Source: Chloroflexota bacterium | GTDB lineage: Bacteria; Chloroflexota; Limnocylindria; P2-11E; CF-107 | Direction: 5' to 3' | Length of the DNA stretch: 64,000 nt | Assembly (NCBI GenBank): GCA_005881435.1 | Contig: VBHP01000031.1 | Span: 15,242 to 79,241, forward strand | Shown: piece after piece, positions 2-56,957 of the stretch | Layout: each line of letters starts with the position of its first letter | Numbering within the stretch: the first letter of the stretch is position 1 | The notes under the pieces: generated by a model | Told to the model about the DNA's origin: nothing | Seen by the model: only the letters and a program-made list of their open reading frames with translations | Database searches by the model: none | Program-made: the position numbers and the translations under genes

Positions 2-400
2 ATGATCAGCGGCGAGGTACCGCCGCCACCGGTCGCGCGGCTGGTCGGCTTCAAGCTCGAATCCATCGAGCCCGGGATCGCCGTCGTGAGTCTCGAAGCC
101 GACGAGCGACGCCACGCGAATCCGATGGGCACGTTGCACGGCGGCATCCTCTGCGACATCACCGACGCGGCCATGGGACTCGCGTTCGCTTCGACGCTCC
201 AGGACGACGAAAGCTTCACCACTCTGGAGCTGAAGATCAGCTTCCTGCGCGCCGTGCGGAACGGCAGGCTCGTCGCCAGCGGCAGGGTGCTGCATCGCGG
301 TAGGAACATCGGCTTCGTCGAGAGCGACGTGGTCGATGAGACCGGCGCGCTGATAGCGCGAGCGACGAGCACCTGCCTCCGGCTTGCGGCTAAGTCCTGA
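2..400 (+). CDS. PaaI/4HBT-family hotdog-fold acyl-CoA thioesterase (may be 5'-truncated by the window edge)
   Basis: ORF 2..400; NPMGTLHGG...D hotdog thioesterase signature; about 130 aa. Confidence 0.7.
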   Translation: MISGEVPPPPVARLVGFKLESIEPGIAVVSLEADERRHANPMGTLHGGILCDITDAAMGLAFASTLQDDESFTTLELKISFLRAVRNGRLVASGRVLHRGRNIGFVESDVVDETGALIARATSTCLRLAAKS

Positions 401-3353: not shown

Positions 3354-3982
3354 CGGCGAACGTGACGCCAGACGAACAGAAGCACGAGGACGAGGATCGC
3401 CGCGGCGATGATGTAATCGAGCCCGCCGAGCGTCTCCCGCACAGCCCGCCAGTTGTCGCCGAGCGCCTTGCCCGCGTACACGAGCGCGATCGTCCACGGC
3501 ACCGCGCCCAGCAGCGAGAAGAGCACGAAGCGCCACAAGGGCATGCGCGCGATCCCGGCCGGGAGCGAAATGAACGTCCGCACCACCGGGAGCAGCCGGG
3601 TGAAGAAGACGGTCGCGTCGCCGTATCGCGCGAACCAGCGCTCGGCCAGCTCGATGTCATGGTGCGAGATCAAGATGTAGCGGCCATAGCGTTCGAGGAG
3701 CGGTCGGCCGCCGGCCGCACCCACGGCGTACGCGATGAGCGATCCGGTGGTGTTGCCTAGCACGCCCGCGACCACGGCGAGCCAGAACTCCCACGGCCCT
3801 CCGGTTAACGGCTCGGGGAGCTGTCGCGCCACGGCCCAGCCGGCAAGCGGGAGCACGAGCTCGCTTGGAAGCGGGATGCAGGCGCTCTCGATGGTCATCG
3901 CCAGCACCAGCCCGGCGTAGCCGATGCTCGTGTACAGCGACTCGAGAAATGGGATGACCAGCGTTTCCAGTGCTTGAAGCAC
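3350..3982 (-). CDS. DedA/VTT-family membrane protein
   Basis: Signature FTRLLPVVRTFISLPAGIARMPLWRFVLFSLLGAVPWT. Stop TGA overlaps the ATG of the downstream PAP2-GH38 gene. Start assigned to GTG 3982; the upstream in-frame extension overlaps the other strand, so the 5' end is uncertain. Confidence 0.8.
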   Translation of the reverse strand: MLQALETLVIPFLESLYTSIGYAGLVLAMTIESACIPLPSELVLPLAGWAVARQLPEPLTGGPWEFWLAVVAGVLGNTTGSLIAYAVGAAGGRPLLERYGRYILISHHDIELAERWFARYGDATVFFTRLLPVVRTFISLPAGIARMPLWRFVLFSLLGAVPWTIALVYAGKALGDNWRAVRETLGGLDYIIAAAILVLVLLFVWRHVRR

Positions 3983-4073
3983 GCGGTCATTCTGGGGCGC
4001 AACCGCAGCGGGTGCGTCGAGGCACGCCACCTGCACGTGCGTTCGGCGATATTTCGCCGATAGGAGTGATGAC

Positions 4074-4340
4074 ATGGATCTCGGGAGCATCATCGGTTTC
4101 ATCATCGTCGGCGCCATCGTCGGCGTGATCGCACGATTCCTGGTGCCTGGACCGGACCCGATGGGCTGGGTCGGCACGATCCTGTTGGGCATCGTCGGCT
4201 CGTTCGTCGGCGGTTTCTTGCTGAATCTGCTGTCCGGCAGCGCCACGATCTCGCCGGCGGGATGGATCGGCTCGATCGTCGGCGCCATCATCGTGTTGCT
4301 CATCTGGCGTCAGATGGGTGGCCGCCGCGCCGCGACGTAG
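4074..4340 (+). CDS. GlsB/YeaQ/YmgE-family transglycosylase-associated stress membrane protein
   Basis: 88 aa with glycine-zipper TM helices (GAIVGVIARFL...GIVGSFVGGFLLNLL); AGGAGTG Shine-Dalgarno 6 nt upstream. Confidence 0.8.
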   Translation: MDLGSIIGFIIVGAIVGVIARFLVPGPDPMGWVGTILLGIVGSFVGGFLLNLLSGSATISPAGWIGSIVGAIIVLLIWRQMGGRRAAT

Positions 4341-4368
4341 CCGGGTGCGCGGCGGAGAGCCTTAAGCG

Positions 4369-6075
4369 ATGACACAAGCCGAGACACGCCCGCGAGCGGC
4401 GCGCGACAGCACGTTGCAGCAGCGCGGGCGTGAGCTCGGCCGCCTGGCCGAGCGCCGGCTCGCACTCGCGCCACGGGATGCGGCCGCCGCCGAGCGGGCG
4501 CGCCGTCTACGCGATCACGCGCTCGGCTACATCGTGCCCCGTGCCACGGACCTCGACGCTCCGCTGCTGATCCTGTTGCTCGGTCCAACCGGCGCGGGCA
4601 AATCGTCGATCCTGAACACCATCGCCGCGGGTCCGGTAAGCGCCACGGGCGTGGTCCGGCCGACCACGCGCGACGCGATCCTGTACGCCACGGCGGCCGA
4701 CGCCGAGCGGCTACTCGAGAGCGGGCAGCTCGGACGGCTTTCGCGCGGCAGCGTCGGACGCGTGCTGGCACCCGGCGACCGGACCGGCGTCGCGATCGTC
4801 GACGCGCCCGATATCGACTCCGTCGAACGTGCGAACCGCGAGCTCGCGGACGCGTTGATCGAGTCCGCCGACCTCTGCGTGTTCGTCACCACGGCGACGC
4901 GGTATGCGGATCTCGTCCCGTTCGAGGTCCTCCGCCGCGTTCGCGAGCGCGGTCTTCCGCTGGTCGTCGTGATCAACCGGCTGCCGCGCGACGAGCACGA
5001 CCGCGAGGTCGTGGTGGCCGACGCGTCGAGACTCCTGGCGCAGGCGGGCGTCCCGACGGAGCGAATGACCATCGCCCTGGTCGGTGAAGGCGAGTTGGAC
5101 CCGACTGTCGATGGTCTCTCGCGCGAGGCGCTTCGACCGGTACTCGAGCGCATCGACCAGCTCGCCGGCGATCGGGACGAGCGGGCCGCGCTGGCGGCAT
5201 CGACGCTCGAGGCCGCGATCCGCGGTCTGGCGCCATTGGCCCACTCCGTGGCCGACGACCTGGAACATGACGCGCTGGACACGGAGACGCTCCGGCGGAT
5301 CGCTGCCACGACGTACGTCGAGGAGCTGGACGACCTCCTGCGTGCATTACGCGAAGGCGGCGTGCTTCGCGAGGAGATTCTCCGTCAGTGGCACGACTTC
5401 GTGGGCGCCGATCAGATCACGCGGCTGTTCGCCACCGGCTTCGGTCGCTTGCGCGGGATGCTGCTGGTCGCGCTGCGCGGACGTCCGAACTCCCCGGCGC
5501 CGCAGGTCGAGGAGGAGGCCGTCACGGTGCTGGCCGCTCAGGTCGGTCGGTACGCCAACGAGGCCGCGCGCCGGACCGCCGGACGTTGGTCCGAACGCGA
5601 GGATGGCGCCGGACTCGTCGCCACCGAGCCAGGGCTGTGGAGCGCGTCGCCGGATCTCGGGAACGCGGTCCGCGGGGACCTGGACGAATGGCTGCGCTCG
5701 ATCGTCGACGATGTCCGCGCCGCGGGAGACCGTAAACGCACGACGGCACAGATCGCGGCGCTCGGCGTCAACGCGGTCGGCGTCGCCGTCATGCTCGCGG
5801 TCTTCGCGCACACCGCGGGTCTGACCGGCGCCGAGCTCGGCATCGCCGGCGGGACCGCGTTCGTGAACCAGAAGCTCTTAGAGACCATCTTCGGCGAGCG
5901 CGTCATGGAGGAGCTGATCGAGCGTGCCCGCTCACGCCTCGACGCGCTGCTGACCGCGCTCTTCGCCCACGAGCGCGATCGCTTCGATCGCGTCGCCGCC
6001 GCTCCGCAGGACCTGCGCGAGATCGCGTCGTCATTGCGGCGCACCGTCGACGCCTTCGCCGCGGAACGGGCATGA
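4369..6075 (+). CDS. Dynamin-like GTPase family protein (first of a pair)
   Basis: P-loop LLGPTGAGKSSILN, G3 VDAPDID, G4-like NRLP, long helical C-terminal region. ATGA overlap with the next, paralogous GTPase. Confidence 0.6.
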   Translation: MTQAETRPRAARDSTLQQRGRELGRLAERRLALAPRDAAAAERARRLRDHALGYIVPRATDLDAPLLILLLGPTGAGKSSILNTIAAGPVSATGVVRPTTRDAILYATAADAERLLESGQLGRLSRGSVGRVLAPGDRTGVAIVDAPDIDSVERANRELADALIESADLCVFVTTATRYADLVPFEVLRRVRERGLPLVVVINRLPRDEHDREVVVADASRLLAQAGVPTERMTIALVGEGELDPTVDGLSREALRPVLERIDQLAGDRDERAALAASTLEAAIRGLAPLAHSVADDLEHDALDTETLRRIAATTYVEELDDLLRALREGGVLREEILRQWHDFVGADQITRLFATGFGRLRGMLLVALRGRPNSPAPQVEEEAVTVLAAQVGRYANEAARRTAGRWSEREDGAGLVATEPGLWSASPDLGNAVRGDLDEWLRSIVDDVRAAGDRKRTTAQIAALGVNAVGVAVMLAVFAHTAGLTGAELGIAGGTAFVNQKLLETIFGERVMEELIERARSRLDALLTALFAHERDRFDRVAAAPQDLREIASSLRRTVDAFAAERA

Positions 6076-7652
6076 ACGTCGCTCGCTGCCTGGAGCGGCT
6101 CGACGAGGCGGTCGACGCAACGCGAGCGCTGGGATTGCCGGTCGACGACGCGACGGCGGTCTCCGAGCGCGCGCGCACGCGGCTCGGGCTGGGCGGGGAC
6201 GCCTACGTCGTCGCGCTCATCGGCGGCACCGGTGTCGGAAAGTCGTCGCTGCTGAACGCGCTCGCAGGCACCGAGGTCGCCGCGGCCGGCGCGAAGCGCC
6301 CGACGACGGATCAGGCCGTGGCCTGGGTCCCGCGACAGCGGCGCGGCGAGCTCACCTCGGTGCTGGAGTGGCTCGGTGTCGATCGCGTGAGCGAACACGC
6401 CGGCAACGGCATGGCGTCGGTCGCGGTGCTCGACCTCCCAGACCTCGACTCGGTCGCGCGCGAGCACCGCGCCCGGGTCGACCAGCTGCTGCCGCGCATC
6501 GACGCGGTCGCGTGGGTCGTCGATCCCGAGAAGTACAAGGACCTCGTGCTCCACGACACCTACCTGCGGGCATGGTCGCGACGGCTGCCACATCAGGTGG
6601 TCGTGCTGAATCGGACCGACCTCCTCCCCGACGGCTCGGCCACGCGCGTACGCGAGGACCTGCGCGCCGAGCTCGACGACGCCGGCTTGCGCGAGGTGCC
6701 GGTGCTGACGACGCAGGCCCGCCGCGGCGGATCCGGCGTCGAAGAGCTCCGTCGCTGGCTCACCGCTGAAAGCGACGACAAGACCGTGGTGGCCGAGCGC
6801 CTTGCCGCTGACATCCGTGAGGCGATCGGCGACCTCGCCCGCCGCGCCGCCGTCACGGACGGCCTCGCGCCGCCGCTGGTGACGGCCGAGCGACGCGAAG
6901 CCGCCCTGCGCGACATTGCCGGCGCGGCGATCGCGCTCGTCGATCCGCGCGGGTTGGAGGCGCAGGCGGTCGCGGCGACGCGCCTCAGCGCTCGACGCCG
7001 CGGGACCGGTCCGCTCGGTGTGCTCACCAGCGCGCTCTACCGCTGGAGCGGCCGCGCACGAGCGTCGGCAAATCCGGCGACGTATCTGCGCCACTGGCGC
7101 GAGCGCGGGAGCCTCGCGCCCGCGTCGGAGCCCATGCGCGCGCTTGTCGCGTCAGCATTGCCCCCATTGCCTTCGACGCTGCGCCCGGCGGTCGCCGCGC
7201 TGGCCGAGCCGGCGAACATCGAACGCGGCCTGGCGGCCGCGATCGATCGAGCCATCGACGACGAGGCGCGCGACCTGCGCGTACCGGCGAGCGTGCTGTG
7301 GTCCGCGATCGGCGCCGGCCAGTTCGTCGTCGCGGCACTGCTGGTGTTCGCCGCGATCTGGTTCGCATCGCTGTTCGTGCTCGACCATCCGGCGGTCGGA
7401 AGCGTGGCGCTGCCGCTGCTCGGGCCGGTGCCGTCGCCGGTCCTCTTTCTCGCCGGGGTCCTGCTGGCCGGATATGTCCTGACGCTGCTGCTCCGGCTGC
7501 ACGCGGGATGGGTGGCGCGACGCTGGGCGCGCCGCGTGGTGTCGCGGATACGATCCGGCGTCGAGTCGCGCATCCGCGGCTCGGTCTTCCTGCCGCTTGA
7601 CGCGATCGAGGCCGCGCGCTCGCGCCTCGCCGCGGCGATGAAGGACTGCTAG
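6072..7652 (+). CDS. Dynamin-like GTPase family protein (second of a pair; membrane-anchoring hydrophobic hairpin near the C-terminus)
   Basis: P-loop LIGGTGVGKSSLLN, DLPDLD, NRTD (NKxD-like); two TM segments (FVVAALLVFAAIWFASLFVL ... VLFLAGVLLAGYVLTLLL). Confidence 0.6.
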   Translation: MNVARCLERLDEAVDATRALGLPVDDATAVSERARTRLGLGGDAYVVALIGGTGVGKSSLLNALAGTEVAAAGAKRPTTDQAVAWVPRQRRGELTSVLEWLGVDRVSEHAGNGMASVAVLDLPDLDSVAREHRARVDQLLPRIDAVAWVVDPEKYKDLVLHDTYLRAWSRRLPHQVVVLNRTDLLPDGSATRVREDLRAELDDAGLREVPVLTTQARRGGSGVEELRRWLTAESDDKTVVAERLAADIREAIGDLARRAAVTDGLAPPLVTAERREAALRDIAGAAIALVDPRGLEAQAVAATRLSARRRGTGPLGVLTSALYRWSGRARASANPATYLRHWRERGSLAPASEPMRALVASALPPLPSTLRPAVAALAEPANIERGLAAAIDRAIDDEARDLRVPASVLWSAIGAGQFVVAALLVFAAIWFASLFVLDHPAVGSVALPLLGPVPSPVLFLAGVLLAGYVLTLLLRLHAGWVARRWARRVVSRIRSGVESRIRGSVFLPLDAIEAARSRLAAAMKDC

Positions 7653-8575
7653 CGGCTGAAGGCGGTTCGCAGCGCTCGCCCGATGTCGTCGATCGCGCGA
7701 TCGGCGCTGTCGACCTCGCCGGCCATAGGGATGAATCCGTGCACCACGCCCTCATAGCGCCGGCACTCGACCGCTACGCCACTGTCGCGTAGACGTCTGG
7801 CGTAGGCCTCGCCTTCGTCACGCAGCGGATCGAACTCCGCGATCACGATCACCGCCGGGGGGACACGGCTCAGATCGTTCGCCCGCAGCGGCGAGGCATA
7901 TGGATTCGCGCCGTCGGCGACGTCGCGCAGGTAATGGCTCCAGAACCATTGCATCTCGTTCCGCGTGAGCCGGTAGCCCTCGGCGTTCTCGGCGTACGAC
8001 GGGGTATCGAAGGCGTAGTTCAGCACCGGCACCAGCAGGACCTGGAACACGAGCCGCGGACCGCCACGGTCGCGCGCGGCCAGCGCCATGGCCGCAGCCA
8101 GGTTGCCACCGGCGCTCTCGCCGCCCACGGCGATGCGACTGGGGTCGACGTCGAGAGACCGAGCATTCTCGGCGAGCCACTTCGTCACCGCGTAGGACGC
8201 TTCGAGCGCGACGGGAAACGGATGTTCCGGCGCGAGTGGGTAGTCGACCGATACGACCACGCAGCGCGCCGCGTTGGCCAAACGCCGGCACAGCGCATCG
8301 GGAGCATCGAGGTCGCCGAGCACCCATCCGCCGCCGTGCAGATAGACGAGCGCCGGCAGATCAGTCCCGCCCGGTGCGTAGATGCGGACGCCAACGTCCC
8401 CCGCCGCAGTCCGTAGGGTGCGCTCGAAGACTCGAGCAACCGCTGCGCTGGGAGGATGGAGCAGCGCACCACGCTCACGCGAGGCGCGTCTTGCTTCGTC
8501 CGGGCTCATGCGGTCGCGGGCGATCTCCGGCAGCCGTTCGAGCACCCGTTCCACCTGCGGATCGAGGCGTGCCAC
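7649..8575 (-). CDS. Alpha/beta-hydrolase esterase/lipase (HSL family)
   Basis: HGGGW oxyanion motif, GESAGG nucleophile elbow, C-terminal DPLRD/HGF. Confidence 0.8.
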   Translation of the reverse strand: MARLDPQVERVLERLPEIARDRMSPDEARRASRERGALLHPPSAAVARVFERTLRTAAGDVGVRIYAPGGTDLPALVYLHGGGWVLGDLDAPDALCRRLANAARCVVVSVDYPLAPEHPFPVALEASYAVTKWLAENARSLDVDPSRIAVGGESAGGNLAAAMALAARDRGGPRLVFQVLLVPVLNYAFDTPSYAENAEGYRLTRNEMQWFWSHYLRDVADGANPYASPLRANDLSRVPPAVIVIAEFDPLRDEGEAYARRLRDSGVAVECRRYEGVVHGFIPMAGEVDSADRAIDDIGRALRTAFSR

Positions 8576-8617
8576 AGCGGGAGCCTACGCCCTCGGCCGG
8601 TAGTATTCGCGCGCGGA

Positions 8618-9838
8618 ATGCCGACCGAAACCGATCGCACGCTCGCCGAGGCGCTCTCGGGTATCGCGCGCGCGGACGTGATCGTCGGGATCCCGTCGTA
8701 CAACAACGCCAAGACCATCGCGCACGTCGTCGACATGGCGCGTCAGGGATTGCGCCACTCGTTCCCCGCGCTGACCGGCGTCGTCGTCAACTCCGACGGG
8801 GGCAGCGAGGACGGCACGCGCGATGTCGTCACGGAACAGGACACGCCCGAGCTGCGCGTCGTCAGCGGCCGCTACACCGGGCCAAGCGGAAAGGGCAGCG
8901 CCCTGCGTGCCGTGTTCGAAGCGGTGAGGCAGCTCGGCGCTCGCGCCGCCTGCGTCGTCGACAGCGACCTCCGCAGCATCGCCCCGGAGTGGATCGAGCG
9001 GCTGCTACGTCCCGGCATCGATGGTCGCGCCGGGTACGTCACGCCGCTGTACATCCGTCACAAGCACGACGGCACCATCACCAACAACGTCATCTATCCG
9101 GTGGTGCGAGCGCTGTACGGCAAGCGCGTGCGACAGCCGATCGGCGGCGACTTCGGGTTCAGCGCCGACATGGCGCGGCGCTGGCTCGCCGAGGACGTCT
9201 GGGAGACGGACGTGGCCCGCTTCGGCATCGACGTGTTCATGACCACGACGGCCCTCGCGTCCGGCGCGACGGTGATGCAGGCCGCGCTCGGCGCGAAGCT
9301 GCACGATCCCAAGGATCCGGCGCGACACCTCGCGCCGATGTTCACGCAGGTCAGTAGCGCCCTGGTCGACCGGCTCCGGGCGCACCGCGCGTTCTGGTCC
9401 CGAGCGGTCGGATCCGAGCCGCTCGAGACCGAAGGACAAGCGCCGGCGATCGAGCCCGACGATGTTCGCGTCGACCTCGCCGGGCTCGATGCCGCGTTCC
9501 GCCTTGCCAACACGCCCGATCGCGAGCGCTGGTCGGAGATCATCTGCGCCGACGAGCTCGCGACGTTCACGGCGGCGGCCGAAGCCGAGGCGCCGTCGGG
9601 ATGGGACACGGAGCGCGCCTGGGCGCGGATCGTCTACGACGTTCTCGGTTCGTCGATGCGCGACGGCGCGCAGACCGCCGCGAACGTGCGGGCGCTGCTG
9701 CCGCTGTACTTCGGTCGCATCGCGATGCACGTCCGCGCCGCCTCGGGGATGCCGAGCAGCGCCGCGGAGGCGCTCGTGGAGCGTCAGGCGGAAGCGTTCG
9801 AGGCGGAGAAGCCGCATCTGCTGAAGTCGGCGCGATGA
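8618..9838 (+). CDS. GT-A glycosyltransferase resembling GT78 mannosylglycerate synthase / MggS (glycosyl-glycerate synthase-like)
   Basis: Start at the internal ATG 8618, because the upstream part overlaps the esterase. IPSYNN, DGGSEDGT, GKG, and the block CVVDSDLRSIAPEWI, which resembles HFYDADITSFGPDWI of Rhodothermus MGS as recalled from memory. Confidence 0.5.
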   Translation: MPTETDRTLAEALSGIARADVIVGIPSYNNAKTIAHVVDMARQGLRHSFPALTGVVVNSDGGSEDGTRDVVTEQDTPELRVVSGRYTGPSGKGSALRAVFEAVRQLGARAACVVDSDLRSIAPEWIERLLRPGIDGRAGYVTPLYIRHKHDGTITNNVIYPVVRALYGKRVRQPIGGDFGFSADMARRWLAEDVWETDVARFGIDVFMTTTALASGATVMQAALGAKLHDPKDPARHLAPMFTQVSSALVDRLRAHRAFWSRAVGSEPLETEGQAPAIEPDDVRVDLAGLDAAFRLANTPDRERWSEIICADELATFTAAAEAEAPSGWDTERAWARIVYDVLGSSMRDGAQTAANVRALLPLYFGRIAMHVRAASGMPSSAAEALVERQAEAFEAEKPHLLKSAR

Positions 9839-11943
9839 CGGTTTCGCTGAAAGAGGGCGAGGTCGTCCTGATCACCCCGGACGACGGCTCGATCCCGGCG
9901 GACGATCCCGGCGCACACGGCCTCTACTACCACGACATGCGCTTCGTCTCGGTGTTCGAGCTGCGGATCAACGGCGAGCCACCGATGCTGCTGTCAGCGA
10001 ACGGCGACGAGAACTACGTCGCGACCTTCCAGCTCATCAACGACCAGGTCGTGCTCGCCGACGGCTCGAGGCTCCAGCCCCAGTCACTGTCGATCCGCCG
10101 CACGCGGTTCGTTGCCGACGGCTGGCGCGAGCGCATCGGGCTGCTGAACTGTTCGGCGCAGACGGTCACGCTGGAGATCGCGCTGATCGTCGACGCCGAT
10201 TTCCAGGATCTGTTCTCCATCCGCGGATACCACGGCATGGACCTGCCGCCGGTCACGCGAGAGATGCGCGAGGGTGGCGTGAACCTGTGGGCGCGCGGGG
10301 CCGACGGGATCGTCCGCACCACCCGCGTCCGTACCATCCCCGATCCCACCGCCGTCGTCGGACGCGAGCTGCGGTTCACTCGCACGCTCGGGCCGCAGGA
10401 GGTCTTCGCCATGGAGGTGCGGCTCATACCGTACGAAGACGACAAGCCGCCGACCGCGGGACTACGCGACTTCGACGAGGCCATCGAGGCGGTCCGCGAG
10501 AGCTACAAGGGCTTCTTGAAGGACAGCACCCGCGTCGCGACCTCGCGTGAGCGGCTCGACCGCGAGCTGCTCGAGCGCTCGGCCCGCGATGTGCGAGCGC
10601 TGCTCGACTTCGAGCCGACCGGGCCGTATCCGACCGCGGGCATCCCGTGGTACGCGACGCCGTTCGGCCGCGACGGGATCATCGCCGGGCTGCAGACGTT
10701 GTGCTTCAACCCCGACGTGGCCGTCGGCACGTTGCGGCTGCTGGCGCGCTACCAAGGTCGAAAGGTCGATCCCTACACCGAGGAGGAGCCGGGAAAGATC
10801 CTCCACGAGCTGCGGCGCGGCGAGCTGGCACGGCTCGGGCGGGTGCCGCATCGCCCTTACTACGGGACCGTCGACGCGACGCCGCTCTTCGTCTCGCTGC
10901 TGGTCGAGACGGTCCGCTGGCTTGGCGACTGGACGCTGTACCGCGAGCTGCTGCCAAGCGCCGATGCGGCCCTGCGCTGGTGCGACACATTCGGCGACAT
11001 CGACGACGACGGCTTCGTGGAGTACGCCAGCAGCGGTTCCAGCGTCGAGCTCCGCAACAAGGGTTGGAAGGACTCGCAGTCGTCGTTGTCATACCGCGAC
11101 GGCTCATACGCCCAGCTGCCCGCCGCGCTCGTCGAAGTCCAAGCGTACGTGTACCACGCCAAGCGCGGCATGGCCGAGCTGGCCGCGCTCGACGGCGACG
11201 CCGAGCGCGCGGCGCGCCTGCACCGCGAGGCCGAAACGCTACGCGAGCACTTCGAAGACGTCTTCTGGATGCCTGCCGAGCGCTGCTACGCGCAGGCGCT
11301 CGACGCGTCGAAGCGACAGATCGAGGCCGTGACGAGCAATGCCGGTCACGCGCTGTGGGCCGGCATAGCCTCGCCCGAACGCGGCGCGCTCGTCGCAGCG
11401 CGGCTGATGGAGCGCGACATGTTCAGCGGCTGGGGCGTGCGCACGCTCTCATCGGGCTATCCGACGTACAACCCCATGAGCTACCACAACGGCTCGGTGT
11501 GGCCACATGACAACTCCATGATCGCCGCGGGTCTGGCGGCATACGGCGAGCACGATCGCGCGAATCAGATCATCAGCGCCATGGTCGACGCCGGCCTCCG
11601 CTTCCCGAACGCGCGGCTGCCGGAGCTCTTCTGCGGGTTCTTCCGCGACCAGCGATTCTCCAACCGTCCGGCCGACTACCTCGTGTCGTGCATCCCGCAA
11701 GCGTGGTCGGCCGCGGCGCCGCTGCTGTTCCTTCAGACCATGCTCGGCCTGCGGCCGGAGCTCGCGACGCGCGAGCTTCACGTCGATCCGGTCCTGCCGC
11801 AATGGCTCGAGCGTGTCGACGTCGTCGGCCTTCGCGCTCTCGGCCGCCGCTATACGTTTCGCGTCCGACGGACGCGCCGCGGTGTCCGCGTCAGCGGAGA
11901 CCTTCGCCGGCCACTGGGCACGCGCGTTGCAGCTACCGCCTGA
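9835..11943 (+). CDS. Glycogen-debranching-enzyme-like (GDE_N_bact + amylo-alpha-1,6-glucosidase / six-hairpin GH) glycoside hydrolase
   Basis: ATGA overlap with the upstream GT; GDE-type motifs PWYATPFGRDGII and GWKDSQ; (alpha/alpha)6-type C-terminal region; 702 aa. Confidence 0.65.
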   Translation: MTVSLKEGEVVLITPDDGSIPADDPGAHGLYYHDMRFVSVFELRINGEPPMLLSANGDENYVATFQLINDQVVLADGSRLQPQSLSIRRTRFVADGWRERIGLLNCSAQTVTLEIALIVDADFQDLFSIRGYHGMDLPPVTREMREGGVNLWARGADGIVRTTRVRTIPDPTAVVGRELRFTRTLGPQEVFAMEVRLIPYEDDKPPTAGLRDFDEAIEAVRESYKGFLKDSTRVATSRERLDRELLERSARDVRALLDFEPTGPYPTAGIPWYATPFGRDGIIAGLQTLCFNPDVAVGTLRLLARYQGRKVDPYTEEEPGKILHELRRGELARLGRVPHRPYYGTVDATPLFVSLLVETVRWLGDWTLYRELLPSADAALRWCDTFGDIDDDGFVEYASSGSSVELRNKGWKDSQSSLSYRDGSYAQLPAALVEVQAYVYHAKRGMAELAALDGDAERAARLHREAETLREHFEDVFWMPAERCYAQALDASKRQIEAVTSNAGHALWAGIASPERGALVAARLMERDMFSGWGVRTLSSGYPTYNPMSYHNGSVWPHDNSMIAAGLAAYGEHDRANQIISAMVDAGLRFPNARLPELFCGFFRDQRFSNRPADYLVSCIPQAWSAAAPLLFLQTMLGLRPELATRELHVDPVLPQWLERVDVVGLRALGRRYTFRVRRTRRGVRVSGDLRRPLGTRVAATA

Positions 11944-12042
11944 GCACGCTCGCCTTCTCGCTCGGTGTCCGTTCGGAGCGTGAGTCCCTCGGCCGCAAAT
12001 GGTGCTGAAATAAGGTCGTTCGGAGGTCGGAGCAGGAGAAGC

Positions 12043-13254
12043 ATGCCGCGCGTACTGCTGCTGCACTACACCTTCCCCGGCATCGTCGGCGGTGTCGAGA
12101 TGGTGCTCGCGCGTCATGCGGCCGCGCTGCGCGATGCCGGCGCCGACGTCGTCATCGCCGCCGCGGGCGTGCGCTCGGCGCGCATCCCGGAGCTGGACTC
12201 GCGCCATCCCATGGTCGAACGCGTCTTCCACGAGCTAGCCGCGGGCGAGGTCAGTGAACGACTCGAGCATCTGCGCGAACGGATCCGCGAACGGCTGGCG
12301 CCGGAGATCCTCCGCAGCGAGCGCGTGGTCGCGCACAACGTCCTCACGCTGCATAAGAATCCCGCGCTCGCGCTGGCGCTCCGCGACCTCGCACGCGGCA
12401 TGACGCCGGGCAAGCTCGTGGTGTGGGTGCACGATCTGGCGTGGACCGACCGGCGCTATGCGCGGCAGCGCCACGACGGGGAACCCTGGGACACGTTCGC
12501 TCGTCCGATCCCTGGCGCCCGCTACGTGGCCGTGTCGGAGGCGCGTCGAGACGAGACCGCGCAGCTGCTCGGCATCCCCGACGATGCCATCGCGATCGTG
12601 CCGAACGGCATCGATCTCGCCGAGGTGCTCCGACTTTCGTCGACGACACGCGCACTCGTCGACCGGCTCGGCCTCGGCGGCGCGACGGTGCTGCTGCTGC
12701 CGGCACGACTGACCCGGCGAAAGCGCGTCGAGGTGGCCATCGACGCCGCGGCGGCGCTGTCGCGTCGTGGCCGCCGCATCCGCTTGCTCGTGACCGGTGG
12801 TCCCGGACCGCACAACGCGGACAACGTCCGGTATCTCGAGGAGCTGCGTGGCCGCGTGACGGCCTCGCGGGGTGCGGCGGTGCTCCTGCACGACGCCGTG
12901 CCCGGACCGCTGTCGCATCGCGCGGTGATGGAGCTGCTGTCGCTGGCCGATGCCCTGGTCTTCCCCTCCGAGCAGGAGGGCTTCGGCATCCCGTTGCTGG
13001 AAGCCGCGGCGCTGCGGGTGCCGATCATCGCAAGCGACATCCCGGCGCATCGCGCGCTCGTCGGCGAGCAGGCGACCTACGTGGCGCCGGATGCCGACGC
13101 GGATCAGCTCGCCGCAGCCATCGAGCACGCGCTCGAAAGCGACGCCGCTGCCCGCCGCCGGGCTGTGGCGCGGGAGCACGAGTGGTCCCGCATCCTGGCC
13201 GATCGGGTCGTGCCGCTGGTCCTCGGCGAACGCTCGGGCACGCGGAGCGCGTGA
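12043..13254 (+). CDS. GT4-family glycosyltransferase (MggA-like candidate)
   Basis: Internal ATG 12043 preceded by AGGAGAAG Shine-Dalgarno. GT4 C-terminal EX7E-type region PSEQEGFGIPLLEAAALRVPIIASD. Confidence 0.75.
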   Translation: MPRVLLLHYTFPGIVGGVEMVLARHAAALRDAGADVVIAAAGVRSARIPELDSRHPMVERVFHELAAGEVSERLEHLRERIRERLAPEILRSERVVAHNVLTLHKNPALALALRDLARGMTPGKLVVWVHDLAWTDRRYARQRHDGEPWDTFARPIPGARYVAVSEARRDETAQLLGIPDDAIAIVPNGIDLAEVLRLSSTTRALVDRLGLGGATVLLLPARLTRRKRVEVAIDAAAALSRRGRRIRLLVTGGPGPHNADNVRYLEELRGRVTASRGAAVLLHDAVPGPLSHRAVMELLSLADALVFPSEQEGFGIPLLEAAALRVPIIASDIPAHRALVGEQATYVAPDADADQLAAAIEHALESDAAARRRAVAREHEWSRILADRVVPLVLGERSGTRSA

Positions 13255-15065
13255 TGCGCGTGCTCGTCGCCATCGGCGACATCGATCGGGACCGCGGCCT
13301 CGTCGACGTGGCGCGGGCGCTCGGCGACGGCGGCGATCTGGTCCTCGCCTCGGTCGTGGAGATACCCGGATCACGATCGCTGGCCTCGGCGCAGCCGCGC
13401 GCCCGAACGCGCCGGCTGCAGCTGCAATCGTTCACCAAACGCGCCGGCATCACCGCGGGCGTGGTGGTGAAGGTCGCGCGCAAGACGCTCGACGCCATCG
13501 CCGAGGCGGTCGAGCACGAGCAGGCCAAGCTTCTGATCATCGGTTGGCCGAGCGCATCACCGAGCGAGGCGCTCAACGAGTTCCTGTCGCATCCACCCTG
13601 CGACGTCGCCGTCGTGGTCGGCGATGTCGGCGGCGCGCGCCGGATCCTCGTGCCGGTGCGCGGCGGACGCTACGCGCAGCTCGCGGTGGCGATCGCCTCG
13701 GCCATCGCCGCGCATAACGACGGCAACGTCACGCTGCTGCACGCGACCGAGCCCGGACGCGATGCCCCACGAACGCGGAGCGCGCTGTATGACGTGCTCG
13801 GCGCGGCGCAGCACTCGCGCATCGGACAGCTTGTCAGCGCCGTCGGTCCGGCCGCGGAAGTGATCCGCTCACAGCTGCCGGACCACGACCTCGTGGTGCT
13901 CGGTGCAACCGCGCGCGACGGCGTGAGCTCCTCGTTCGGACCCATCGCCGAGGCGCTGGCGGCGTCGGGGACGCCGCTCCTGGTGGTGCGCACCCGCACG
14001 CCGGTCGCCTCGCGCATCTTTTCGGCGCGCTCGACGCTGCCGGCTGACCGACGCGAACGCAGCGGTTACATCTCCGAGCTGGTGGACAAGTGGTTCGCCG
14101 AGAACACCTTCGTCTCCTCCGAGTTCGCCGACCTCGAGCGCCTCGTCGATCTCAAGCGCCGCCAGGGCGTGACCATTTCGGTGGGACTGCCGGCATTGAA
14201 CGAAGAGGAGACGATCGGCGACGTGGTGTACACGATGCGCAAGCGGCTGATGGGCCGCTATCAACTGGTCGACGAGATCGTCGTCATCGACTCCGGCTCG
14301 AGCGACCGGACCCGCGAGATCGCGAAGGGCGAAGGCGTGCCCGTCTACGTGCATCAGGAGATCGTGCCCGAACTGGGCGCGAACTCCGGCAAGGGCGAGG
14401 CGCTGTGGAAGAGCCTGTTCGTGCTGCGCGGCGACATCGTCTGTTGGGTCGATACGGACATCCGCAACATCCACCCCAAGTTCGTGTACGGCATCGTCGG
14501 CCCACTTCTGGTCCATCCGCGGCTGCAGTATGTGAAGGCGTTCTATCAGCGACCGCTCAACGTCGGAGAGACGATGCAGGCAACCGGCGGCGGACGAGTG
14601 ACGGAGCTGACCGCGCGGCCGATCCTCAATCTCTTTTTTCCGGAGCTCTCCGGCATGATCCAGCCGCTCTCCGGCGAATACGGTGGGCGGCGCGCGCTGC
14701 TCGAGCAACTGCCGTTCTTCACCGGTTACGGCGTCGAGACCGGCCTGCTCATCGACGTCCTGCAGCGCGGCGGACTCGACGCCATCGCGCAAACGGACAT
14801 GAAGCAGCGGATCCATCGCAACCAGTCGCTGCTGGCGCTGTCGAAGATGTCGTTCGCCCTGCTCCAAGTGGTGCTGAAGCGCGTCGGCGAATCGACCGGT
14901 CGAGCCATCTGGGAAGAAGCGAACTCGTCGCTGAAGCTCATCCGCGGCGACCGCGGTCGCTATCGGCTCGACGTCCAGGAGATCGTCGAGGGCGAGCGGC
15001 CGCCGCTGGTCAGCGTGCCGCAATATCGCATTCGCCGGAATTCCTCGTTGGTCGGGGTCGGTTAG
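13255..15065 (+). CDS. gpgS: Tandem universal-stress-protein (UspA) domains fused to glucosyl-3-phosphoglycerate synthase (GpgS, GT81)
   Basis: ATG immediately follows the GT4 stop. The N-terminal 280 aa carry two USP-like alpha/beta repeats. The C-terminal half matches GpgS motifs: TISVGLPALNEEETI, VIDSGSSDRT, GKGEALWKSL, ATGGGRVTEL, QPLSGEY, IAQTDMKQRIHRNQ. Confidence 0.75.
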
Positions 15066-15153: not shown

Positions 15154-16326
15154 ATGGCCGGGGAGCGGATCCGAGTCCTGATCGTCGACGATCACGACGC
15201 CACGGTGCAGACCGTGACGACGATGCTTCAACTCGACCCCGAGTTCGAAGTGATCGGGGTCGCCGGCGACGGGAAGACCGGCGTCGACCAAGTCGCGGCG
15301 CTGCACCCTGACGTCGTGCTGATGGACATCAACATGCCGGTGATGGACGGCATCAGCGCGACCGAGATCATCGTCCAGCAGCACCCCGGCACCGCGGTGG
15401 TGATGCTGTCGGCGCAGACCGATCACGAATACCTCCGGCGCTCGATGAACGTCGGCGCCAGCTACTTCCTGGCGAAGCCGGTCTCGAGCGATGAGATCTA
15501 TAACGCCATCCGGCGCGCGAACGAGGTCAACCGACTCCGTTCGCAGCGCTACGCCGCTCCGCCCCCGGAGCCCGAGCCGACCGCGCCAGCCGGTACGGCG
15601 ATCGCGTTCTTCTCCCCGAGCGGCGGCGTCGGGCGCACGACGATCGTGACCAACCTCGCCGTCGCGCTGCAGAAGATCGCCCCGACCGCGATCGTCGACC
15701 TGAGCCTCCCGTTCGGCGACATCGCGGTGCTGCTGAACGCGCCGCCGAAAGCGAAGTCCATCGGCGACCTCGTCGGCAAGTTCGCCACGCTTCGCGGGGC
15801 CGACGTCGACCAGGTGCTGTTCACGCATCGCTCTGGCGTTCGCGCGCTGCTCGCGCCGCCCTCGCCGGAGATGGAGGAGCGCATCGGACCCGACGATGTG
15901 CGCAAGCTGCTCACCGTGATCCGGCAACAGTTCCGCTTCGTGATCGTGGACACCTGGGCCTCGTACGGCGAGACGATGCTCGCCGTCCTCGAGAGCGCCG
16001 ACCGCATCGTCCTTCCCTTCACCCTGGAGCTGACGAGCGTCAAGAACGCACGGGTCTTCATCGAGGTAATGCGCAAGGTCGGGCTGGATCCCAAGGTCTC
16101 GCTGCTGGTGAATCGCGTGGATCAGCCCAACGGGCTGAAGCTATCCGAGATCGAAGGCGGGCTCGGCCGCAAGTCGTCGTACCAGCTATCGACGGACGAG
16201 GCGTCGCTGCGTCTGGCCATGAACCGCGGGCTGCCCGTCGTCGACACGCACCCGGACAGCAAGCTCGCCAGAGAGTTCGCCGCCGTCGCCAAGGCAGTCG
16301 CAGCCGAGCCGGCCCTCACGCGTTAG
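15154..16326 (+). CDS. Response-regulator receiver domain fused to a CpaE/TadZ-like (MinD/ParA-fold) ATPase domain
   Basis: Receiver with DD, phospho-acceptor D (LMDINMP) and K (LAKP). Deviant Walker A FFSPSGGVGRTT, typical of TadZ/CpaE. Confidence 0.65.
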   Translation: MAGERIRVLIVDDHDATVQTVTTMLQLDPEFEVIGVAGDGKTGVDQVAALHPDVVLMDINMPVMDGISATEIIVQQHPGTAVVMLSAQTDHEYLRRSMNVGASYFLAKPVSSDEIYNAIRRANEVNRLRSQRYAAPPPEPEPTAPAGTAIAFFSPSGGVGRTTIVTNLAVALQKIAPTAIVDLSLPFGDIAVLLNAPPKAKSIGDLVGKFATLRGADVDQVLFTHRSGVRALLAPPSPEMEERIGPDDVRKLLTVIRQQFRFVIVDTWASYGETMLAVLESADRIVLPFTLELTSVKNARVFIEVMRKVGLDPKVSLLVNRVDQPNGLKLSEIEGGLGRKSSYQLSTDEASLRLAMNRGLPVVDTHPDSKLAREFAAVAKAVAAEPALTR

Positions 16327-16330
16327 CGAA

Positions 16331-17539
16331 TCACTCCAGCTTCCGGATCGCCGGCAGCGCCAGGCCGGCCAGCCCGAACAGCGCGATGACCGCGCCTCCC
16401 GCGACGAAGACCGGCGATGCTCCGAACGCGGCAATCATCGCGCCGCCCACGACCGGGGCGATCGGCGCCAGCAGCGAGCCGCCGAACATATCGACGCTCG
16501 AGACTCGTCCGAGGTACTCGCGCGGCACATAGCGCTGCAGCGCGTTGACCCACGGCACCTCGAAGCCGATGAGACAGGTGCCGCTAAGCGCGGCGAAGGC
16601 CAGCGCGACGAGCAGGTTCGGCGACACACCGATCCCCGCCAGCGCCAGCCCGAACAGCGCCGTATACAGGTACAGCACCACGCCGACGCGGCGGTAACGG
16701 AACTGGCCGACGATGAACGCACCGAGGAGCTCGCCGAACCCCGTCGCGCCCGTCACCAGGCCGAAGACCGTGGCATCTCCCGCGAACGTGTCGCGCACCA
16801 GGATCGGCAGTCCGGTCCAGGCCGCGATGTAGGCGGCGACGACGAAGGCGAATCCGAAGATCGTCACCCACAGCCACGTGAGCGAGAACGTGAACCGTAG
16901 GCCCGCGCCGATCTGCGACAGGATCGATCCGCTCACCTGGCCGGCCGTCGTCGTCGTCGCGCGCATGGCGTAGACCGCGCCGAAGCTGACGAAGAACGTC
17001 AGCGCGTTGAACGCGAACGCGGCCGCGGGTCCGGCGGTGCCGATGAGCAGGCCGGCGAAGACGGGACCGACGAGCAGACCAGCCTGCCGCGAGAACGAGC
17101 GCAGCACGTTCCCTTGCAGCAGGACCGCCGCCGGTACGACCTCGGGGATGATCGCCTGCATCGCCGGAAAGAAGAAAGAGAAGGTCGCGCCGTTGATGGC
17201 CGCGGCGACGTAGAGATGCTCGACGCGCAGCAGGCCGGCGGCGGAAAGCCCCGCGACTGCGGTGAAGACGGCGCCGTTCGCGATGTCGCTGGCCAGGATC
17301 ACGCGGCGTCGCGGCAGCCGGTCGACCACCGCGCCGCCGAGCAACAGGAAGATCAGGCCCGCGGCGGCCAGGATTCCCGAGACGATGCCGATCTGGACCG
17401 GCGAGTTCGTCAGCAGCAGCACCTGCCACGGCAGCGCGATCTGGTTCACGAAGTTGCCGACGGCGGAGAAGGTCTGCCCGCTCCACAGCAGCGCGAAATC
17501 GCGGTTGCGCAGCGGCTCGACCAGACGCGGGACCCGCAC
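16331..17539 (-). CDS. MFS transporter (EntS/YbdA-like efflux family)
   Basis: 12 predicted TM helices. The upstream Arg-rich in-frame extension is rejected; start assigned to a GTG that overlaps the HAD stop (TAGTG). Confidence 0.7.
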   Translation of the reverse strand: MRVPRLVEPLRNRDFALLWSGQTFSAVGNFVNQIALPWQVLLLTNSPVQIGIVSGILAAAGLIFLLLGGAVVDRLPRRRVILASDIANGAVFTAVAGLSAAGLLRVEHLYVAAAINGATFSFFFPAMQAIIPEVVPAAVLLQGNVLRSFSRQAGLLVGPVFAGLLIGTAGPAAAFAFNALTFFVSFGAVYAMRATTTTAGQVSGSILSQIGAGLRFTFSLTWLWVTIFGFAFVVAAYIAAWTGLPILVRDTFAGDATVFGLVTGATGFGELLGAFIVGQFRYRRVGVVLYLYTALFGLALAGIGVSPNLLVALAFAALSGTCLIGFEVPWVNALQRYVPREYLGRVSSVDMFGGSLLAPIAPVVGGAMIAAFGASPVFVAGGAVIALFGLAGLALPAIRKLE

Positions 17540-18294
17540 TACGCCGCGGCGAGCTCGGCGATGACGTCGGGGAGCGCGGCCAGATCGCGGAGCACGCGCG
17601 TCGGCCGAACGCTGTCCAGCGGCTCGCCGTGCCGGTTCACGAACACCGTCCGATAGCCGAGCGCCGTCGCTGGGACGACGTCGTGGTAGAGCGATGCGCC
17701 GACGTGAACGGTGCGCTCCGGCGACGCGCCGCTGCGGCGCTGAAAGACTTGCCAGTGGCCGTGGGCCGGCTTGTAGCTGCCGGCGTCCTCGGCGGTGATG
17801 GCCAGATCGGGCGCGATGCCGAGCTGAGCGATCGAGGTGGCGAGCAGATCGCGATCGACGTTGGAGAGGATCGCCACGCGCGGTCCGCCGGCGCGAAGAC
17901 GGCGCAGCGCCGCCGGCACCTCCGGGAAGGGCCGCCACGATGGCAATGAGGCCGGCACCGGCGAGGGCTTCGTTTCGGGCAGGGGCCGCCCGAGTCGTTC
18001 GAGGAGCAGCCGGCTCGCGCGGTTGAGCACCTCGCGGTACTTGAGGTACTGGCCGCGCTCCACCTCGGCCTCGACGGCGATGTACAGCTGGCCCAGCTCG
18101 TCGCGATCGATCCCGCGCGGCAGCAGCGGCGCGAGCGCGGCGTAGATTCCGCCCTCCCAGTCGATGAGCGTTCCGTAGCAATCGAACGTGACCCAATCCA
18201 CCGCGGACACGGCGCAAGTATTACGAACCGCGTGCACGAACTCGTAGCCCAACTCTGTCGCGGCGACGGAGCCTCCGGCTGACCATTCGAGCAT
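17539..18294 (-). CDS. HAD-superfamily hydrolase (haloacid-dehalogenase type II-like)
   Basis: Motif I FDCYGTLID, motif III K, motif IV D; ATG at 18294..18292 chosen as start. Confidence 0.7.
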   Translation of the reverse strand: MLEWSAGGSVAATELGYEFVHAVRNTCAVSAVDWVTFDCYGTLIDWEGGIYAALAPLLPRGIDRDELGQLYIAVEAEVERGQYLKYREVLNRASRLLLERLGRPLPETKPSPVPASLPSWRPFPEVPAALRRLRAGGPRVAILSNVDRDLLATSIAQLGIAPDLAITAEDAGSYKPAHGHWQVFQRRSGASPERTVHVGASLYHDVVPATALGYRTVFVNRHGEPLDSVRPTRVLRDLAALPDVIAELAAA

Positions 18295-18376
18295 GCGACC
18301 CACGGCTGATTCCGTCTGGTGTGGCGTGCGAGCGCCGCGTGATGCCGTGACGTTCCAGCGACTCTGCGCGATCGCG

Positions 18377-19405
18377 ATGGCACTCGTGGCGGTCGCCTGC
18401 GGCACGCGCGCGCCGACCGGCGACGCTCTCGGCGGTGGCGCCGCGCCGACGATCGCTGCTACGCCCATACCGTGGGCCCCCCGGGCCGCGCCCTCGTGGA
18501 CGCCCCGGCCGCCGGCGGTACCCACTCCGCTCGGGGTGCGGTTCTGTGCCCCGGCCGACCTGGCCGTCTACGCACAGTGGGACGCTGGTATGACCCACTG
18601 GTACACAACGATGCTGATCGCGAACACCAGTGCCACGTCGTGCCAATTAACCGGCACACCGAATGTGCGTGCGCTCGACGCCAACGGTAAAACCACGGTG
18701 CGCACCGTCGCCGACGCTCGCAGCGAGATCGACTACGCGCCGGTGCTCCTCGACCCGGGCCACCCCCTACCGACCGACCGCTCATGGCTCGTCTCCGGCC
18801 TCGCGGTCCTGCCGGTGGAATGGACGCCGTGGTGCGGGGACGCGGTGCGAGTGCGCACCCTCGCGCTCGAGCTTCCCGCGGGCACGCTCTCGATCCCGCT
18901 ACCAGAGGTGGTCAAAGGAAGCAACGAGGTCACGCTCGAACAACGTTGCCTTGTGGCGGGGCTTGCCAGAACTCCGAGCCTCAGGCCCGCGCCGTTCTTC
19001 GCGACGATCCTTCGCGAGCCACCGCCGCCGCTGGTGCTGTCGGCGGTCATCGACGCGCCGGCCACGGTCGCGGCCGACGGCGTGCTCCGCTACACCGTCA
19101 CGCTCACGAACGTAACGCCAACGACATACGTCTTCACCGAGTGCCCGATCTTCAGCGAGCAGTTCGTCAAGAACATGCGGCGGTACTACCTCTCGTGCGA
19201 GACCACACCATCGCTCGCACCCGGCCAATCCGCGACGTTCGCGATGGAGCTATCCCTAGAGCCGCCGCTGACGCCTCGGGAGGACTGGGATCTCCGCTGG
19301 GAGCTAGAGCCCAGTCCGAACAGCGCCAGCGCAACGGCGCGCATCCGCGTCACGCCGCCGTCGTCGGCGCCGAGCATCGCGCCGGCGCCGAAGCGAACGC
19401 CCTAG
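18377..19405 (+). CDS. Secreted/lipoprotein-like protein with two Cys-containing repeats (DUF4232-like)
   Basis: Signal peptide MALVAVACG; Cys-containing repeat modules; start is uncertain, as an ATG at 18293 is also in frame. Confidence 0.4.
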   Translation: MALVAVACGTRAPTGDALGGGAAPTIAATPIPWAPRAAPSWTPRPPAVPTPLGVRFCAPADLAVYAQWDAGMTHWYTTMLIANTSATSCQLTGTPNVRALDANGKTTVRTVADARSEIDYAPVLLDPGHPLPTDRSWLVSGLAVLPVEWTPWCGDAVRVRTLALELPAGTLSIPLPEVVKGSNEVTLEQRCLVAGLARTPSLRPAPFFATILREPPPPLVLSAVIDAPATVAADGVLRYTVTLTNVTPTTYVFTECPIFSEQFVKNMRRYYLSCETTPSLAPGQSATFAMELSLEPPLTPREDWDLRWELEPSPNSASATARIRVTPPSSAPSIAPAPKRTP

Positions 19406-56739: not shown

Positions 56740-56957
56740 CGGAGCGCCTCCCCTGGCGACGGCCGACGGCCTTTCCGTCCCACCACCTCGCGCGCGCTAC
56801 GTGCCGGCGGCACCAGCGCCCCTGCCCCATTCAGACCCGGTGATCGCTCGCCACTGCATCAACGCCCCCGCGCGAAAGAGGCGTTACGAGCGTGCCGATA
56901 GGAAAGTCGTTCGACTGAAACGAATCGTGGGCGTAGGCAAGCGTGTCGAAAAACGGG

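Follow-up and report, generated by a model that had tools for sequence, protein, structure and literature searches.

What is made, and what is taken apart, by a row of four genes that sets two putative glycosyl-glycerate synthases, a GT4 glycosyltransferase and a glycoside hydrolase side by side? We examined such a row, on the + strand within positions 8618-15065 of a 64,000-nucleotide stretch of DNA (hereafter the window) from a Chloroflexota bacterium (GenBank assembly GCA_005881435.1, contig VBHP01000031.1). Glucosylglycerate (GG) is 2-O-alpha-D-glucosyl-D-glycerate, and mannosylglucosylglycerate (MGG) is Man-alpha-1,2-Glc-alpha-1,2-glycerate. On balance, and with moderate confidence, we regard the locus as a conserved operon of the class Limnocylindria that makes and turns over compatible solutes of the GG/MGG type, the most likely products being GG itself and a hexosyl-GG such as MGG. 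A first-pass annotation, made from the letters of the sequence, had already noted the resemblance to the GG/MGG enzyme set, and this is borne out by a match of equivalog level to glucosyl-3-phosphoglycerate synthase (GpgS), by a protein with the fold of mannosylglycerate synthase (MGS) and by linkage to GpgS, GpgP and glycerate kinase across phyla. Its call for an uncharacterized osmolyte, on the other hand, can be dispensed with, as the known GG and MGG explain the genes; an undescribed di-glycosyl-glycerate product is possible.

The number and coordinates of the four co-directional, partly overlapping genes (table 1) were correctly given at the outset, and independent gene calls on a public contig that is 97-100% identical to the window (ENA, CRIT18-1 scaffold_43, 107.5 kb) agree with them, the contig's own products measuring 406, 702, 410, and 603 aa. 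Third-position GC reaches 0.82-0.88 in all four genes, in a genome of 69% GC. Genes 1 and 2 share 4 nt (ATGA) and genes 3 and 4 share 1 nt (TGATG), giving two translationally coupled pairs, 1+2 and 3+4; the 99-nt spacer between genes 2 and 3 carries a GGAG-type ribosome-binding site. Ahead of gene 1, the 42 nt that part its start from that of a divergent esterase gene (8576-8617) hold a TAGTAT-like element, placed 11 nt ahead of the ATG, and lack a clear Shine-Dalgarno sequence, a layout which suggests that the leader of gene 1 is very short or absent. No signal exceeding shuffles emerged from a promoter and terminator scan of the locus, and no RNA element from an Rfam search of it. The genome had been described as actinobacterium-like; its nearest proteins instead all belong to metagenome-assembled genomes (MAGs) of Chloroflexota, class Limnocylindria (Ellin6529/CSP1-4 lineage). 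Within this class the order gene 1-GH176-GT4-USP-GpgS recurs in 16 species-level genomes, at 44-71% protein identity to the window: ten of these loci span the full operon, and the other six end at a contig edge and match the order up to there. Since the downstream flanks of the operon fall into three unrelated contexts in these relatives, the cohesion of the block exceeds inherited gene order.

The entry into the pathway would be provided by gene 4. Its C-terminal ~330 residues score 379.7 bits against the NCBIfam GpgS equivalog PRK13915/NF010496 (cutoff 262; residues 277-589), and its matches in the PDB are Rubrobacter MpgS/GpgS (246 bits) and mycobacterial GpgS (225-230 bits), at ~50% identity. 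Alignment to 3ckj, 4y6n, and 7pdo reveals conserved DTD (DXD), GGGRVTEL, and RIHRNQ motifs; from GpgS structures, we take the DXD to serve metal and nucleotide binding and GGRVTE to form the acceptor loop. In the last motif gene 4 follows GpgS (HRN), where Rubrobacter MpgS reads QNRHQ. By this equivalog-level match the protein is a predicted GT81 GpgS, as the first-pass annotation had proposed while overlooking the tandem USP domain at the N-terminus. The first ~270 residues match Pfam Usp in two stretches (E 6.8e-13) and form a presumed regulatory module; more speculatively, they probably make the activity of GpgS depend on a nucleotide or stress signal. Judged by eye, the G-x2-G-x9-G(S/T) ATP motif of the second USP domain is degenerate. 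Fusions of the same kind (610-622 aa) are found in Acidobacteriota, in a deltaproteobacterial MAG and in Anaerolineae (loci L026, L040, L070, and L072); the tandem USP-GpgS arrangement recurs in at least four phylum-level lineages.

Gene 1 was initially likened to the GT78 enzyme MGS, and in fold the likeness holds. With an AlphaFold model based on 32 orthologs (pLDDT 90.7), a Foldseek search of the PDB places Rhodothermus marinus MGS at all of ranks 1-8 (TM 0.65-0.77), the match extending over ~400 columns and both the GT-A and the helical C-terminal domain at 15-17% identity; GT81 GpgS/MpgS structures rank after MGS and match the GT-A domain only. Membership of the MGS family, in contrast, is not recovered: Pfam recognizes just a generic Glycos_transf_2 (GT2) domain, MGS_GT (PF21969) yields no match even at E 10, and the homolog P0103 attains 24 bits against it, with the cutoff at 27. 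Searched as a single sequence, gene 1 had no match among PDB sequences; a profile of the 32 orthologs reached GpgS only, and a broader one of 37 diverse family members reached GpgS at 1.5e-9 and MGS at 4.9e-5. A DSD motif and His229 are invariant in the family; the latter, presumably a metal ligand, lines up with the histidine of HRN in GpgS. Where GpgS has its GGRVT loop, gene 1 reads DGTIT, and the absence of the Arg, which in GpgS presumably touches the 3-phosphoglycerate phosphate, would accord with glycerate in unphosphorylated form as the acceptor. Fold, motifs, and gene context across phyla thus fit a predicted glucosylglycerate synthase (Ggs), and "glucosylglycerate synthase" is the name given by JGI to some orthologs (51-53% identical). 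The equation of the MGS-like enzyme with MggS, made in the first reading, was mistaken: the MGS-like enzyme corresponds to Ggs, while the NCBIfam MggS model (NF041101) matches GT4s. In the same vein, Fernandes 2010 reportedly describes MggS as a GT4 related to MggA, and the MGS-like enzyme of the Petrotoga and Persephonella systems as Ggs.

The gene 1 family is large, with more than 7,900 proteins in over 596 species-level genomes of many phyla, and its neighbors are telling. We surveyed the 80 best species-level loci with gene 1 relatives, clustering the flanking open reading frames and annotating representatives. GpgS lies within the fetched flanks of at least 46 of them (30 of the Methanococcoides/Persephonella type and 16 USP-GpgS), and the joining of one-step and two-step synthases in a single operon, first thought unusual, is therefore commonplace. 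A HAD phosphatase of the MPGP family (GpgP type) is present in ~28 loci, a MOFRL/DUF4147 glycerate 2-kinase adjoins in 19, and a small MscS-like membrane protein (236 aa) directly follows the Ggs-like gene in half of the sample (40 of 80; e.g. L080, 9271-9981); several loci also hold a sugar ABC transporter. In L070 and L072, USP-GpgS is followed by a His_Phos_1 phosphatase, the mycobacterial GpgP type, and in four Chloroflexota loci (L020, L047, L067, L072) the GT4 adjoining the homolog of gene 1 is related to MggS over its full length (199-265 bits with NF041101). The row in L072, from an Anaerolineae MAG (2767-9194), runs [gene 3-like GT4]-[USP-GpgS]-[His_Phos_1 phosphatase]-[MggS-like GT4, 206.8 bits]-[gene 1 homolog] and looks like a complete double MGG pathway. 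GpgS, a GpgP-type phosphatase, glycerate kinase, and an MggS-like GT4 are together the company to be expected of a predicted Ggs that uses free glycerate. In one locus (L031, 5637-7790) the MOFRL/DUF4147 glycerate 2-kinase is itself fused to an MPGP-type HAD phosphatase domain.

Gene 3 carries the Pfam domains Glycos_transf_1 and Glyco_transf_4, in line with its initial placement in GT4. Its best sequence matches in the PDB are GT4s with phosphorylated acceptors (SPS, PimA, GlgM, MshA), and three of its orthologs are named "mannosylglucosylglycerate synthase" by JGI. In L072 a 40%-identical GT4 of the gene 3 kind lies directly upstream of USP-GpgS, and a separate MggS-like GT4 adjoins the gene 1 homolog; the pairing of gene 3 with USP-GpgS extends over the 16 Limnocylindria loci and L072. 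Judged by sequence, then, two types of GT4 are to be told apart, the MggS type accompanying Ggs and the gene 3 type accompanying GpgS. In Petrotoga, MggA accompanies GpgS and uses the phosphorylated intermediate, and MggS uses GG (PMC3736172). Because the gene 3 type pairs with GpgS as Petrotoga MggA does, an MggA-like role may be ascribed to it by analogy. An apparent 681-aa GT4 fusion (P0226) was discarded as a miscalled start with a spurious Arg-rich extension.

Turnover would fall to gene 2, first described as a six-hairpin hydrolase of the GDE type. The (alpha/alpha)6 barrel and the GDE domains are indeed there (Pfam GDE_N_bis, 152 bits; MGH1-like_GH, 74.9 bits with a cutoff of 27; GDE_C, 41 bits), and the fold class is (alpha/alpha)6 of clan GH-G type with an MG-hydrolase-like domain; the family, though, is GH176, whose characterized member is an exo alpha-1,2-glucosidase and not a debranching enzyme. 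Residues 18-652 match PDB 7VMA (TgAMY, the founder of GH176) with E 3.9e-100 and 339 bits, and the score against Pfam Glyco_hydro_63 is 16.2 bits, under the cutoff of 22.4. FGRDG, ILHE, GWKD, SYHNGSVW, LPELF, and PQAW are conserved between gene 2 and 7VMA. With the residue numbering of A8F5, a GH176 enzyme of Arthrobacter humicola, transferred by motif via this alignment, they cover the catalytic acid Asp (W-x-D), the base Glu, the fixer Asp (R-D) and the kojibiose-binding H-E, Y-H...W, and Q-x-W. A8F5, the sole well-characterized GH176 member, is a specific inverting exo alpha-1,2-glucosidase, and TgAMY has all the A8F5 binding residues and an exo-type pocket, the evidence for its debranching being indirect; the gene context and physiological substrates of GH176 are not discussed in that work (bioRxiv 10.64898/2026.07.01.735942), and our literature search returned no paper linking GH176 with glucosylglycerate. 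A search for gene 2 homologs returned Limnocylindria orthologs only (P0241-P0360), all of which carry the public label "glycogen debranching enzyme" or "amylo-alpha-1,6-glucosidase"; in view of the surrounding operon and of GH176 biochemistry, that label is probably wrong or misleading for the gene 2 subfamily. The N-terminus, inspected by eye, has no obvious signal peptide. Since it combines alpha-1,2-glucosidase motifs with a place in this operon, and GG is a 2-O-alpha-glucoside, gene 2 is the natural candidate for the solute-recycling hydrolase, predicted to act as an exo alpha-1,2-glucosidase on GG or its extended forms, at the Glc-alpha-1,2 bond; in mycobacteria the recycling role is taken by the clan-related GH63 enzyme GgH (PMC5381378). 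The cyanobacterial glucosylglycerol hydrolase GghA/Slr1670, considered as an analog of gene 2, was rejected as a member of the unrelated GHL5 family.

Putting these assignments together, gene 4 would convert NDP-glucose and 3-phosphoglycerate into glucosyl-3-phosphoglycerate, as its equivalog-level match implies, and gene 3, going by its partner, would add a second hexose to glucosyl-3-phosphoglycerate or to GG, mannose being suggested by a neighboring GH38 domain only. Gene 1, to judge from its fold, motifs, and cross-phylum context, would use NDP-glucose and free D-glycerate to form GG in a single step. The 3-phosphate would be taken off by a phosphatase, the window itself holding none of the known GpgP or MggB types. 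Once the solute is unneeded, gene 2 would split GG, or a form of it extended by Glc-alpha-1,2, at the alpha-1,2-glucosidic bond, a step before which the neighboring PAP2-GH38 fusion would strip off mannose with its GH38 domain.

Table 1. Positions of the operon genes and of their divergent and inserted neighbors in the window
Feature	Position	Strand	Description
Gene 1	8618-9838	+	406 aa; GT-A glycosyltransferase with C-terminal helical domain; predicted one-step Ggs-like
Gene 2	9835-11943	+	702 aa; GH176 hydrolase; N-terminal beta-sandwich together with an (alpha/alpha)6 barrel
Gene 3	12043-13254	+	403 aa; GT4 retaining glycosyltransferase; predicted MggA-like
Gene 4, N-terminal part	13254-14063	+	tandem USP domains fused to GpgS
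Gene 4, C-terminal part	14064-15065	+	GT81 GpgS catalytic domain; whole protein 603 aa
PAP2-GH38 fusion	390-3353	-	987 aa; Pfam PAP2 and GH38 N, middle, and C domains; possible accessory gene
DedA/VTT membrane protein (UptA-like)	3350-4303	-	Pfam VTT_dom; co-transcribed with PAP2-GH38; membership in the system doubtful
Dynamin-like GTPases, two in tandem	4369-6075 and 6072-7652	+	within the 4.3-kb insertion
LipP1-family esterase, hormone-sensitive-lipase type	7649-8575	-	within the 4.3-kb insertion

The PAP2-GH38 gene, in which a PAP2 membrane phosphatase is joined to a GH38 alpha-mannosidase, adjoins the operon divergently in 16 Limnocylindria genomes, with a DedA-like gene between GH38 and gene 1. 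The fusion scores 378 bits against NCBIfam MngB, a mannosylglycerate hydrolase (below the cutoff of 1138), and MngB is the sole glycosidase-type family among its three NCBIfam matches. Its PAP2 part displays KX6RP, PSGD in place of PSGH (the C2 motif), and RX5HX3D, and GH38 begins exactly 34 residues past the last of these; spacing, fusion, and the PSGD variant are kept in 17 out of 17 loci (the window and L001-L013, L017, L019, and L023, all Limnocylindria). To our knowledge, no such fusion has been described. We consider it a candidate mannose-removing, perhaps dephosphorylating enzyme, linked to the operon by synteny only; its GH38 domain is the sole hint of mannose as the second sugar. The DedA protein reaches 174 bits against the NCBIfam undecaprenyl-phosphate transporter UptA (cutoff 250), and its gene overlaps the PAP2-GH38 start by 4 nt; together, DedA and PAP2 resemble a pair for recycling a lipid carrier, to which, oddly, a mannosidase is joined. 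Upstream beyond GH38, conservation extends to a MalK-like ATPase, a DUF4388 protein, and a ROK sugar kinase. In the window, DedA and gene 1 are parted by a 4.3-kb insertion (4369-8575) that its GTDB relatives lack and the near-identical contig L081 shares; a small Transgly_assoc gene was also called in it. The operon is immediately followed downstream by a gene (15154-16326, + strand) that joins a response-regulator receiver domain to a MinD/ParA-like ATPase and is restricted to the window genome and the near-identical contig. Far from the operon, a 656-aa protein (54826-56796, - strand) strongly matches the animal haem peroxidase family (348 bits), unusual for Chloroflexota.

Several observations weigh against the solute pathway that we favor. 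Gene 3 comes to 56.7 bits against the MggS equivalog NF041101, whose cutoff is 640, and its best NCBIfam match is the uncharacterized MSMEG_0565 family. The +1 subsite His and Glu of GH176 bind glucose in kojibiose and may not suit the carboxylate of glycerate. Synteny on the GH38 side reaches further upstream in all relatives, and the adjacency of GH38 to the operon may in part be inherited gene order; with PAP2 and DedA as its partners, GH38 could alternatively be concerned with lipid-linked glycans. The 64-kb window lacks GpgP and MggB, with no MPGP-family gene, no His_Phos gene of the GpgP type and no MOFRL glycerate kinase in it. The phosphatase may be encoded elsewhere in the genome, as in mycobacteria, or, more speculatively, the PAP2 domain may supply the removal of the 3-phosphate. 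A HAD gene (17539-18525) was rejected for this function, being of the type-II haloacid-dehalogenase-like kind (117.7 bits), not MPGP-like, and syntenic only in L003. Finally, transcribing synthases and a hydrolase together makes for a futile cycle in the absence of post-translational control. Such control of solute synthesis is what the USP-GpgS fusion suggests, and it could explain how synthases and hydrolase can be co-transcribed.

Two linked readings we hold to be unlikely. In the first, GH176 represents a new type of glycosyl-glycerate hydrolase and much of the family acts physiologically on GG-type solutes; the operon would then make an undescribed alpha-1,2-linked diglycosyl-glycerate, e.g. 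kojibiosyl-glycerate, dismantled stepwise by GH176. In the second, the membrane-tethered PAP2-GH38 supplies the missing phosphatase and/or mannosidase step. Improbable, too, is that GG serves not as a free solute but as the primer of a larger molecule, an intracellular polysaccharide or glycolipid, with the GT4 elongating, GH176 and GH38 trimming, and PAP2 and DedA handling a lipid carrier. Mycobacterial methylglucose lipopolysaccharide, a comparable molecule, is initiated by GpgS (PMC2674218, PMC3240985); the MSMEG_0565 family that gene 3 matches best is a mycobacterial GT4 family of uncharacterized role, GH38 is fused to an undecaprenyl-diphosphatase-like PAP2 and follows an UptA-like DedA gene, and a LipP1-type esterase adjoins gene 1. 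This esterase and the GTPases, however, belong to an insertion specific to the window genome, the conserved block is devoid of methyltransferase, acyltransferase, GH57, and further elongating glycosyltransferase genes, and gene 1 relatives keep company with genes of the osmoadaptation type (MscS-like protein, MPGP-family phosphatase) and with MggS-like GT4s.

A third possibility, which we judge quite improbable, is that the locus serves two separate solutes, mannosylglycerate (MG) and GG, gene 1 being a true MGS or gene 4 an MpgS of the Rubrobacter type, with GH38 as the mannosylglycerate and GH176 as the glucosylglycerate hydrolase. The structures closest to gene 1 are those of Rhodothermus MGS, as set out above, but the low identity to MGS (15-17%) and a score under the Pfam MGS_GT threshold temper this, and it is GG, not MG, that is needed by the GpgS, GpgP, and MggS-like genes located beside its relatives. 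Gene 4 does find its best PDB match in the dual-specificity Rubrobacter MpgS (246 vs. 230 bits), yet it carries the GpgS-type HRN in place of QNRHQ and passes the GpgS equivalog. The best NCBIfam match of GH38 is Escherichia coli MngB, a mannosylglycerate hydrolase, which says little on specificity given that no other glycosidase-type family is among the matches of the fusion; and the GT4 would be left without a role. That glycogen or alpha-glucan metabolism is the true setting of the hydrolase and the GT4, and that they are mere neighbors of two glycerate-glycoside synthases, is very unlikely, for the debranching names of the orthologs, the reported activity of TgAMY on maltodextrin and weak gene 3 matches to GlgA-type models are set against a TgAMY debranching claim without direct bond-cleavage evidence, an exo-type pocket with kojibiose-binding residues that gene 2 shares, the lack of GlgB, GlgC, GlgP, and GlgX among the annotated genes of the conserved block, and gene pairs coupled by 4-nt and 1-nt overlaps in an order kept in 16 species.

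Read as an operon for GG/MGG-type solutes, the locus combines parts already known, namely the individual families and the dual-route logic, with variant elements: the presence of GH176 within the operon, the fusion of USP with GpgS and the absence of a recognizable phosphatase. Nowhere in the literature searched is there a description of the GH176 component, of the USP fusion, of a GT4 of the gene 3 type, or of the PAP2-GH38 neighbor. Limnocylindria are abundant uncultured Chloroflexota of soil and freshwater, and the operon would offer them a mechanism for tolerating desiccation, osmotic, or nitrogen stress. It also offers a physiological context for GH176, thousands of whose members are annotated "glycogen debranching enzyme" and whose sole well-characterized activity, alpha-1,2-glucosidase, has no obvious natural substrate.

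How, then, does the locus compare with known systems? Fernandes et al. 2007 are said to have described an operon-like ggs-gpgS-gpgP cluster in Persephonella marina, with the one-step and two-step GG routes side by side. The window likewise encodes a predicted one-step Ggs and a predicted two-step GpgS together, and Nitrospirota, Gallionellaceae, and other gene 1 relatives resemble Persephonella in having GpgS, a Ggs-like gene, and an MPGP-family phosphatase per locus. The window differs in that its GpgS is of the actinobacterial/Rubrobacter GT81 type with an N-terminal tandem USP, GpgP is missing, and a GT4 and a GH176 are inserted. In the MGG pathways of Petrotoga mobilis and Rhodopirellula baltica, GpgS works with MggA and MggB, and Ggs with MggS (PMC3736172). 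As in Petrotoga, where gpgS and mggA go together, GpgS is directly coupled to a GT4 in the window and a Ggs-like gene is also present, and related Chloroflexota loci have clear MggS-like GT4s adjoining the Ggs-like gene. Unlike these pathways, the window has a gene 3 distant from MggS, no MggB-type phosphatase and no MggS, and it adds GH176 and GH38, MGG-degrading enzymes of neither family having been found in the literature consulted. Rhodothermus marinus MGS (GT78; PDB 2BO4, 2Y4J) is the best structural match to gene 1 over both domains and is within reach of the broader profile; in sequence, however, the GT-A domain of gene 1 is nearer to GT81 GpgS, and gene context points to glucosyl and not mannosyl transfer.

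On the hydrolytic side, gene 2 has the two-domain architecture, catalytic Asp and Glu, fixer Asp, and all -1/+1 subsite motifs of the GH176 enzymes A8F5 and TgAMY, but differs in loop lengths (702 vs. 620/652 aa) and in being embedded in a glycosyl-glycerate synthase operon, a setting which suggests that its substrate is a solute and not free kojibiose or glycogen. Hydrolases of glucosylglycerate and mannosylglycerate are known from GH63, as GgH in Mycobacterium hassiacum and MgH in Thermus and Rubrobacter (PMC5381378, PMC6608630). Gene 2 stands apart from them by family, with its GDE_N_bis N-domain and GH176-type subsite residues, yet it shares the (alpha/alpha)6 fold at the clan level and, as we propose, the cytoplasmic hydrolysis of 2-O-alpha-glycosyl-glycerates, by which sugar and glycerate would be recovered.

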